NCBI GenBank assembly: GCA_003223595.1
Contig: QHVR01000403.1
Location: 1-31,280, forward strand
DNA from: Acidobacteriota bacterium
GTDB taxonomy: Bacteria > Acidobacteriota > Terriglobia > Terriglobales > Acidobacteriaceae
Length of the DNA: 31,280 nt
Direction of reading: 5' to 3'
Part shown: positions 1,655 to 2,845 of the stretch, piece by piece
Numbering within the stretch: the stretch's first letter is position 1
Layout of the letters: every line of letters starts with the position of its first letter
Notes under the pieces: generated by a model
Seen by the model: the letters and a program-made list of their open reading frames with translations, nothing else
The model's database searches: none
Told to the model about the DNA's origin: nothing
Translations under genes and position numbers: made by a program

Positions 1655-1933
1655 GAGGCGCAGTGTAATGGATTGGCGGGCGAAGTTGCATGGCAAGCTA
1701 CCGGCGATGGTTCATGATTGTGGGTTTTCGCCCATGTTCAGGGTCGCGGCTCGGTGCTCAATGACACGCAAAATTGTTGATCCCTGCGAGAATTTTATTG
1801 ACAGTTTATTAACCATAGCTCAATATCTTGTGTTATAGGGCCTCCCGGTACGATAAGTAGGGTTGGCCTTTCAGATTAAGGGCCCAAAGTGGTTACCCCT
1901 TGCAAGGGAAAATCGTTCACGGAGGCACCTTCA

Positions 1934-1972
1934 ATGGCAACGAAGAAGAAGGCAAAAAAGAAGAAACACTAA
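1934..1972 (+). CDS. Candidate 12-aa lysine-rich microprotein MATKKKAKKKKH
   Basis: GGAGG at 1921-1925, 8 nt upstream of ATG 1934; stop TAA at 1970-1972; sits in an otherwise non-coding gap. Too short for the ORF track. Confidence 0.55.
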   Translation: MATKKKAKKKKH

Positions 1973-2036
1973 CTGTAGGCGAGAAACTACTTCGCATACA
2001 CCACGGTTTTTAACTGGCCTCTCGAGAGAAGCACCT

Positions 2037-2071
2037 CTTGGGAGGCTTTCCCGTTTTGAGGGCCTCCCAGG
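2037..2071 (+). terminator. GC-rich hairpin (tgggaggc/gcctccca) without a U-tract
   Basis: Perfect 8-bp inverted repeat at 2039-2046/2062-2069, extendable by 2 bp; lies between the microprotein ORF and merR. Confidence 0.4.
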
Positions 2072-2179
2072 GCAGCAGGGCCCAAATCAGTCTTATGGAT
2101 GCGCGAAATTCTGCGACGGGCGCTTCTGCCTGTGGCACAATAGGCGAAACCTGCGGCCCTAAGCCGCCCCTCGCTGAAG

Positions 2180-2584
2180 ATGGCTATGCGAAAACGAAGC
2201 CCTGCCAAACAGAAGGCCGATGAAGTCCTGATCCCCGACAAACTTTACTTCCGCATCGGAGAGGTTGCGACCCTGTGCCGGCTTCCCGCTTATGTCTTGC
2301 GATTCTGGGAGTCGGAGTTTCCGCAGCTGAAGCCGGTAAAAAGCAGCACGGGGCAACGCATGTACCGCAAGCGTGACGTGGAAAACGTGCTGCGCATTAA
2401 GCAGCTGCTGTACGAGCAGGGGTTCACGATCTCCGGCGCGCGGCAACAACTGCGAGCCGAGACGAAATCCGATAAGACGCAGAGCGCGATTCCGTTCCCG
2501 TCCACCTCGACGCCAGAGATCCAGAACATCCGGCGAGGGTTGCGGGAAATCCTGGATCTGCTTTCAAGCCGGCGCACAGGATAA
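2180..2584 (+). CDS. MerR-family HTH transcriptional regulator
   Basis: IPDKLYFRIGEVATLCRLPAYVLRFWESEFPQLKP...GQRMYRKRD...LLYEQGFTISGAR is the HTH of the short MerR/MlrA-like subfamily. Confidence 0.93.
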   Translation: MAMRKRSPAKQKADEVLIPDKLYFRIGEVATLCRLPAYVLRFWESEFPQLKPVKSSTGQRMYRKRDVENVLRIKQLLYEQGFTISGARQQLRAETKSDKTQSAIPFPSTSTPEIQNIRRGLREILDLLSSRRTG

Positions 2585-2683
2585 TCCTCAGGCACTTTGT
2601 TCGGGTTTCGTAACGCAAAGCAATGTTTGGCGCGGTTCCTTCCAATCTCGTAGAAAATCGGCTCAACAGTGAGGGGGAGAGGA

Positions 2684-2845
2684 GTGGCTCCGGGCGATTG
2701 TCCGAAGTGTGGCGGCTCTGGATATGTAGCGAAGCCGGTCGAGCTGAATGGCAAGACCGAAGGCATAGCGTTTATCCAGATCAAATGCCCCGCTTGCGGA
2801 GGAACCGGCCGGAAGCGCGCAATCTCACCTGAAACCGCCGGCTGA
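2684..2845 (+). CDS. 53-aa zinc-finger microprotein with two DnaJ-type CxxCxGxG motifs
   Basis: Manual translation from GTG 2684: MAPGDCPKCGGSGYVAKPVELNGKTEGIAFIQIKCPACGGTGRKRAISPETAG*. Purine-rich SD region (gggggagagga) directly upstream; stop TGA at 2843-2845. Confidence 0.75.
   Translation: MAPGDCPKCGGSGYVAKPVELNGKTEGIAFIQIKCPACGGTGRKRAISPETAG

Follow-up and report, generated by a model that had tools for sequence, protein, structure and literature searches.

In attenuators of the trpL, hisL and pheL type, a leader peptide is encoded by a short open reading frame (ORF) dominated by the codons of one amino acid, and a terminator hairpin follows. Lys/Ala-rich histone-H1-like sequences are exemplified by chlamydial Hc1 and Hc2 and by the C terminus of mycobacterial HupB. 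The tiny ribosomal proteins bS22, bL37, bTHX and eL41 are roughly 24–33 amino acids (aa) long, and the known ones beside bS22 also mix Arg and Lys. All of these are very short, extremely basic and missed by annotation. Each has a stand-alone gene, is highly conserved in its lineage and occurs patchily among bacteria (PMC10618245). The bS22 protein of Borrelia, with 30 aa of which 61% are Lys or Arg, was unannotated and was found only by cryo-electron microscopy (cryo-EM); it is a bent helix of ~30 aa filling a pocket formed by 16S h2/h27/h44/h45, and its authors expect more such cases (PMC10618245). Here we analyse a 12-codon, lysine-rich micro-ORF, called type A, in a 31,280-nucleotide (nt) stretch of DNA, the window, from a Terriglobales bacterium of the phylum Acidobacteriota (contig QHVR01000403.1). 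The source assembly comprises 4.38 Mb in 821 contigs, has 57.5% G+C and is 78.5% complete.

Type A resembles each of these systems in part. It shares with attenuators the ORF dominated by codons for one amino acid and the terminator hairpin behind it, but it has no conserved antiterminator and no biosynthetic operon downstream; moreover its whole peptide is conserved, it has a stand-alone paralog (type B), and a promoter-like box belonging to the downstream gene lies at a variable distance. It is like the tiny ribosomal proteins (bS22, family NF047430, has 30–33 aa) in the properties listed above, whereas its predicted peptide of 12–14 aa is Lys-only, and sister genera are without the micro-gene. 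The peptides of types A and B share with Lys/Ala-rich H1-like tails of HU-type proteins (PF00216) a K/A/T/P composition without Arg. Those proteins are long repeat arrays, or tails on a folded DNA-binding domain (112–128 aa), whereas type A is a stand-alone ORF of 12–14 codons. The evidence below indicates that the type A ORF is very probably a real, conserved, unannotated gene. The best explanation overall, to which we assign a probability of roughly 0.6, is an independent, selected micro-gene encoding a free nucleic-acid-binding polycation.

1934..1972, + strand: micro-ORF encoding MATKKKAKKKKH, with its TAA stop; the peptide is kept in same-genus loci, and 115 of 116 environmental copies are intact

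The ORF was read directly from the window and agrees with a preliminary description of this DNA. A Shine–Dalgarno (SD) sequence, GGAGG, at 1921–1925 is followed by an 8-nt spacer, CACCTTCA, a start codon at 1934–1936, 12 codons specifying MATKKKAKKKKH, seven of them for Lys, and the stop codon TAA at 1970–1972 (ATG GCA ACG AAG AAG AAG GCA AAA AAG AAG AAA CAC TAA, 1934–1972, + strand). The reported spacing of 8 nt is correct for this genome but is 7 nt in most relatives. The same description found no long credible ORF in the surrounding gap, and this holds: the longest frame (99 aa, 1863–2162) is disrupted by indels in relatives. That frame has a single match, to a 143-aa 'hypothetical protein', with no short calls, among 5.8 billion protein clusters. 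With one spurious protein call in a collection of that size, the type A locus is invisible to standard gene callers. When the whole genome was searched in any frame on both strands for stretches coding for KKKxKKK, two were found against ~0.001 expected from base composition, and a chance origin of the ORF is therefore implausible. Both stretches are ATG-started, SD-preceded micro-ORFs, one being type A and the other type B, on contig C99.

By blastn, positions 1780–2200 matched 23 of 24 same-genus genomes, at 70–90% identity, and none of 16 genomes of a sister family. Of 20 same-genus loci, 16 encode exactly MATKKKAKKKKH, three have one extra in-frame Lys codon and one (G007) has a K to E change. 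A further sample consisted of metagenome contigs from the Joint Genome Institute (JGI) picked by an exact 22-mer of the leader, not by the ORF, and provided at least 120 loci, 116 of them usable. Every one of the 20 same-genus loci and 116 environmental copies has the arrangement GGAGG-N7/8-ATG. The environmental ORFs were 39 nt (77 copies), 42 nt (29) or 45 nt (9) long, and one was frameshifted. This sole broken ORF, on metagenome contig L261 (~50–130), has an extra A within a GCAAAAAAG run and could be a homopolymer sequencing error or a dead copy.

The 77 ORFs of the 39-nt class comprised 19 distinct nucleotide sequences encoding one peptide, and all ten segregating sites fell at codon position 3. 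In the control, the 39 nt after the stop codon, 38 of 39 sites varied and were spread evenly over the three phases. Third positions carried only A or G in Lys codons, three different bases at Thr and at the second Ala, and C or T in His. Among the environmental peptides, MATKKKAKKKKH accounts for 77 and MPAKKKAKKKKKH for 13; a few others carry an additional Lys or have AAK in place of AK. None of the 116 copies had Arg, Asn, Glu, Gln or Thr at a Lys position, and AGN and AAY triplets were never seen among the environmental ORFs. The variation thus follows the genetic code, and since an (ARN)n constraint would permit AGN and AAY, the ORF appears to be coding rather than an RNA motif; an Hfq (ARN)n tract in place of coding was rejected by this codon-specific pattern. 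Synonymous substitutions, whole-codon length changes and Lys residues that are not replaced, even by Arg, strongly support selection acting on the peptide. The preliminary description had proposed to look in relatives for loss of the ORF and SD and for a lack of synonymous bias; both elements were conserved, and the bias was present. Its suggestion of a basic nucleic-acid- or ribosome-binding microprotein stands as far as a selected protein-coding gene is concerned, on the strength of the synonymous-only variation, the in-frame length changes and the differently flanked paralog, and what the product binds is something we can only infer.

The micro-ORF lies in an AT-rich setting, as had been noted together with the TTGACA at 1798–1803. 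The G+C content is 42–49% across 1750–2050, a trough that corresponds to the type A unit, and 57–62% in the flanks. Positions 1785–2057 are, in our judgement with high probability, an independent, monocistronic and self-contained micro-gene with its own predicted promoter and terminator, made up of the ORF and the following elements.

1785..1797, + strand: A/T-rich box directly 5′ of the −35 hexamer, GAGAATTTTA here, consensus tgcAnAaTTnTg in 145 distinct type A promoters
1798..1803, + strand: predicted −35 hexamer TTGACA, invariant in 20 of 20 aligned loci
1821..1830, + strand: predicted −10 region CAATAT with an invariant CTTG (CAATATCTTG), an invariant block in the alignment
1837..1870, + strand: helix 1, the predicted 5′-terminal stem-loop of the mRNA (RNAalifold, 23 sequences)
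1897..1925, + strand: leader box CCCTTGCAAGGGAAAATCGTTCACGGAGG, near-invariant in the alignment, with a small hairpin, the AAGGGAAAAT motif common to type A and type B leaders, then the SD GGAGG (1921–1925)
1979..1995, + strand: post-stop hairpin GCGAG-N-CUUCGC (helix 4), in which one pair covaries from G-C to A-U in 8 of 23 sequences
2017..2057, + strand: predicted intrinsic terminator (helix 5) with 12-bp stem GCCUCUCGAGAG/CUCUUGGGAGGC, loop AAGCAC, then UUUCCCGUUUU

The predicted mRNA of ~225 nt would start from a sigma-70-type promoter, TTGACA-N17-CAATAT with the A/T-rich box upstream, and would carry in order a covarying 5′ stem-loop, the leader box ending in GGAGG, MATKKKAKKKKH, a hairpin and the 12-bp intrinsic terminator; promoter, transcription start and transcript ends are all deduced from the DNA letters. 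The start would fall at about 1832–1836, giving a leader of ~100 nt. Spacing between the −35 and −10 boxes was 17 nt in 145 of 153 distinct type A sequences, and the flanks were conserved; the two boxes were the search criterion for this set, and the spacing and flanks its result. The invariant block reads (G)CAATATCTTG after TTGACA and 17 nt, and the complete arrangement occurs once in the source genome. The A/T-rich box looks like an UP element or an operator. A consensus promoter scan missed the −10 box because CAATAT matches TATAAT at only three of six positions, and a consensus terminator scan missed the terminator because its U-tract, UUUCCCGUUUU, is weak and interrupted by CCC, the consensus being UUUUCCUUUUU.

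The aligned block runs from just 5′ of TTGACA to the end of the terminator, beyond which the DNA is unalignable. In helix 1, five of nine pairs change on both sides (in 7, 11 and 9 sequences at three of the pairs) and 92% of cells are paired. In helix 5 (stem-loop 2017–2046), 98.5% are paired, a C-G pair is changed to U-A in seven sequences, and the loop AAGCAC is conserved. Over the whole proposed structure 96.6% of cells are paired in the 23 sequences, and 45 cells change on both sides, compared with 16.6 in shuffles; none of 500 shuffles reached 45, and all slid controls were beaten. The linker that joins post-stop hairpin and terminator varies and contains indels. The fold of the single sequence is not exceptional (z = −1.3). 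Pairing of a 5′ GGGCCUCC with the SD in that fold was rejected, being not conserved; in relatives the segment forms the covarying 5′ hairpin instead. A programmed −1 frameshift at A-AAA-AAG within the ORF was also rejected, as indels in relatives break the −1 frame.

These features bear on whether the RNA itself might be the product. A regulatory or dual-function RNA, in which the ~225-nt transcript is the principal effector, perhaps by sponging up an RNA-binding protein, and translation tunes its fate, would be in keeping with the covariation-supported structure, with the near-invariant leader 22-mer and terminator loop, and with untranslated regions that are far better conserved than the adjacent intergenic DNA; the AAG/AAA triplets make up (ARN)n Hfq-type motifs, and GGA motifs suit CsrA. 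We nevertheless regard this as improbable, for the variation fits the genetic code and not an ARN motif, type B has the peptide in common with type A while its RNA is almost entirely different, in other phyla micro-ORFs preserve the peptide between unrelated flanks, and no Rfam family matched: a covariance search of 1400–2800 on both strands, with E up to 10, returned only two chance-level eukaryotic matches. An ARAGORN scan for tRNA and tmRNA found nothing.

C99:9400-9630 (locus L021:1400-1600): type B micro-gene, with its own predicted promoter, two leader hairpins and terminator

The type B ORF (contig C99, 9532–9573) encodes MATKKKAKKKKKH, which is the type A peptide with one additional Lys. 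Its promoter reads ATTTTTTTC-TTGACTTC-N17-TATACAT, its leader of ~70 nt contains two covarying hairpins and the SD region AGGGAGAATAG, and its terminator consists of GGGGACGCG...CGTCCCC followed by a T-run. It is flanked by a divergent thiolase gene and a convergent gene for a UvrD/PD-(D/E)XK helicase-nuclease, a setting kept in ~65 of 77 loci, so that only a convergent gene lies 3′ of it. Over their first ten codons the A and B copies of the source genome show four differences, all at third positions. Outside the ORF the sole flank element common to the two copies is a 10-nt AAGGGA(A/G)AAT just 5′ of the SD. Type A variants L072 and L101 bear the type B form of this motif, which suggests that type A arose from a B-like copy. 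With the exception of the K-to-E copy in G007, peptides of both types are made up only of M, A, T, P, S, G, K and H. Types A and B coexist in most genomes of the genus.

A precursor or substrate peptide, the Lys side chains of which are modified or which is exported as a secreted polycation or a product like a ribosomally synthesised and post-translationally modified peptide (RiPP), would suit the absolute preference for Lys over Arg, as expected of Lys-specific chemistry. No gene for a modifying enzyme, transporter or protease is a conserved neighbour of either copy, however, the neighbours being hydantoinase B and merR (type A) and the thiolase and helicase-nuclease genes (type B), and the peptide has neither a leader/core organisation nor a signal peptide. 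We consider this alternative very improbable.

The relation of type A to the gene downstream involves two further elements.

2131..2141, + strand: TGTGGCACAAT box, a TGTGnCACA palindrome with the look of an extended −10, ~40 nt 5′ of merR and outside the micro-gene
2180..2584, + strand: gene for a MerR-family regulator (Pfam MerR_1, E = 6e-19), a downstream neighbour outside the type A unit

No specific NCBIfam equivalog was found for merR. It lies 3′ of type A on the same strand in nearly all loci, also where merR is only 63–70% identical and the upstream hydantoinase B gene is absent, and the adjacency of the two is therefore old. The distance between them is 157–771 nt, and 1713 nt in one case. 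The TGTGGCACAAT box (TGTGnCACAAT), likely an extended −10 promoter for merR, is the one stretch conserved between the type A terminator and that gene. In a subset of same-genus genomes (L003, L004, L048, L054 and others) the spacer is 666–771 nt long, compared with ~200 nt. The spacer of L004 holds an extra ORF starting MKSFACMFAGLLILGEL, which reads like a signal peptide.

In the preliminary description the ORF was also offered as a Lys-sensing leader for merR. A leader peptide sensing Lys or tRNA-Lys and controlling merR by attenuation would account for Lys at 7 of 12 codons, for the terminator 3′ of the ORF and for a same-strand merR behind nearly all type A loci, even at 63–70% merR identity, and the imperfect U-tract UUUCCCGUUUU could permit some read-through here. 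The remaining evidence does not bear this out. A terminator intervenes, and neither consensus nor single-sequence folds contain a mutually exclusive antiterminator pairing, but only independent hairpins, with the variable, indel-bearing stretch between post-stop hairpin and terminator. The spacing to merR ranges over 157–1713 nt, with the signal-peptide-like extra ORF in the spacers of 666–771 nt, and merR has its own conserved TGTGnCACAAT box and is a generic regulator, not a lysine-pathway gene. The solitary type B gives a near-identical peptide, with one more Lys, upstream of only a convergent gene. Finally, the non-Lys residues (M-A-T and H) are conserved too, which is unusual in leader peptides. 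We therefore give attenuation of merR almost no credence. Type A is very probably an independent unit and not a merR leader, and merR, a long-standing neighbour, is probably not controlled by translation of the ORF. A MerR-type promoter with a long spacer, TTGACA-N20-TATCTT, was also considered and rejected, because merR is conserved but the spacer sequence is not; a MerR operator within the type A promoter is unlikely for the same reason.

To follow the distribution of the micro-gene we used 301 genomes of the order; the sample includes the unpublished genomes G036, G040, G112 and G257, which enter the tallies only and on which no claim rests. The strict ORF pattern MATKKKAKKK was found in 64 of the 301, and a reversed-pattern control in none. 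Matches included 39 of 39 sampled same-genus relatives, mostly with two copies, and members of genera g21, g22, g30, g33 and g60. In genera g35, g37, g47 and g56 the leader 22-mer was also found, exact in four of five genomes and with one mismatch in the fifth. Their units have the same promoter, hairpins and terminator and encode MPAKKKAAKKKK(K)H or MATKKKAAKKKKKH instead; merR, only 67–70% identical in these genera, follows at ~200 nt in four of the five genomes. Since these peptides escape the strict pattern, 64 of 301 is a lower bound. In a species-representative collection, matches carried the labels Terriglobales, Acidobacteriaceae, Candidatus Sulfotelmatobacter and Candidatus Acidoferrum.

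Two loci of genus g22 (L039 and L040) have a type A-like unit, with a TTGACA...CAATATCTTG promoter and a 5′ hairpin, that encodes MATKKKAKKKAKKK and ends in a different terminator; no merR lies within 1.5 kb of it. Micro-ORFs of 15–23 codons beginning MATKKKAKKK (MATKKKAKKKASKKK and MATKKKAKKKTAKKK are two of them) were seen in L096, L111, L147 and L165, in L094, L115 and L132, and in L085, L140, L149 and L167. Each is accompanied by an SD and a terminator of its own. They lie on contigs labelled Gammaproteobacteria/Steroidobacteraceae, Planctomycetales, Omnitrophota and Bacteriovoracaceae, and their flanks are kept within groups and unrelated between them. Unrelated flanks in other phyla would point to a generic target of the peptide rather than a lineage-specific partner.

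After removal of Met, the predicted product of type A is ATKKKAKKKKH, a peptide of 11 residues that would carry a net charge of ~+7 and lacks hydrophobic residues. That the peptide functions as a nucleic-acid polycation is a reasoned guess, to which we give slightly less than even odds. It is made by analogy, as a K/A/T/P composition without Arg fits the Lys-rich tails of nucleoid proteins. The MATKKKAKKK prefix itself opens an HU-type protein (PF00216, E = 2e-17) and proteins of 112–120 aa composed entirely of K, A and V, in Gammaproteobacteria. The strong expression signals would allow bulk production of an oligolysine, which might act on DNA like a detached repeat of histone H1 or of an HU tail. 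Alternatively, its target could be rRNA, in the manner of a tiny basic ribosomal protein. As the two copies differ in their control regions, the cell could adjust the amount of the peptide to different conditions.

A related alternative is a ribosome-bound micro-protein that fills an rRNA pocket as a miniature counterpart of bS22, eL41, bL37 or bTHX; the two gene copies would then resemble alternative ribosomal-protein paralogs. Unannotated, highly basic, conserved tiny ribosomal proteins found by cryo-EM provide the precedent, and type A has a strong SD, a consensus −35, a UP-like box and a strong terminator. A six-frame search with NF047430 (bS22) found no match in any of the 301 genomes, the source included, which could leave a pocket without a known occupant; this is a weak test, as the control matched only Corynebacterium and the peptide is below the 20-aa limit of the scan. 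No complementarity between bS22 and the micro-gene was seen in these genomes, with the same limit of the control to Corynebacterium, and an artificial tandem of the peptide did not match NF047430. On the other side, even the shortest known examples are more than twice as long as 12 aa, Arg is absent here while the basic residues of Borrelia bS22 include both Lys and Arg, the micro-gene lies outside any ribosomal-protein operon, and sister genera of the same family are without it. On balance we find a ribosomal role unlikely.

Several observations also tell against a free polycation that binds nucleic acids. With 11 residues the peptide is small for a stable binder and could be broken down fast. 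If its role were purely electrostatic, Arg should be tolerated; the complete absence of Arg hints at a Lys-specific need, such as modification or tRNA-Lys decoding, and of all features this restriction to Lys is explained least well. Conservation of the leader 22-mer and of the AAGCAC loop exceeds what expression signals need, and the RNA may therefore have a role of its own. All metagenome matches to the leader 22-mer were DNA contigs of more than 1 kb. As the MATKKKAKKK prefix was the query that brought up the HU-tail and other-phylum examples, these represent analogy, not homology. Five near-complete sister-genus genomes (g9, g13, g16, g18 and g2) have no KKKxKKK stretch anywhere; the merR ortholog is present in them, with no Lys-rich micro-ORF near it. 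The micro-gene thus appears to be lineage-specific or dispensable, not universal.

A more specific proposal takes up the Lys-only rule. The product could be a 'ribosomally made polyamine': an oligolysine of 11 residues, free in the cell and made in large amounts from two micro-genes under different control, that serves as a tunable polycation for DNA, RNA or polyphosphate. Lys would be specifically required, perhaps through side-chain modification or through translation of the Lys run as a control. We view this as possible but doubtful. A trade-off with spermidine synthase drew no support from TIGR00417 across the 301 genomes: none had a match above the cut-off, and sub-threshold matches were at least as common in carrier genera, a lack of complementarity that says little for or against it.

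Few free-standing bacterial genes with clear purifying selection on their peptide are as short as type A, with its 12 codons, and a search of the literature found no description of a polylysine micro-gene. New here are type A as a distinct paralog adjoining merR with its own conserved RNA architecture, the coexistence of A and B in the genus, codon-level evidence from an environmental sample drawn independently of the ORF, and the rejection of the leader-peptide reading. Terriglobales, among which the micro-gene is widespread, are a dominant group of acidic soils and peat. If it does encode a bulk polycation, or a component of the ribosome or nucleoid, it would be a missing player in nucleic-acid charge balance or translation in major soil bacteria. 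At least this class of gene, and probably similar ones, escapes genome annotation. That Lys is so strictly preferred to Arg offers a sharp, easily tested handle on the mechanism.

Two further observations concern other ORFs. Downstream of merR, a 58-aa ORF (window 2669–2845, + strand) has two CxxCxGxG motifs and a match to the DnaJ central domain below the Pfam cut-off; by tblastn it was found only in the nearest relative, G024, and not in other same-genus loci. In related Acidobacteria, proteins of 157–165 aa (L031:1060–1530, − strand; L052, L077, L084, L160 and L161) start with MATKKKAKKK and combine an N-terminal half rich in Lys with a conserved, acidic C-terminal half, with no Pfam match in the one scanned (L031). 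Their genes have GGTGCTAGACT 6–7 nt 5′ of the ATG and no SD, which suggests that the mRNA is leaderless. A homolog of the C-terminal part of this family is encoded on contig C683 of the source genome.

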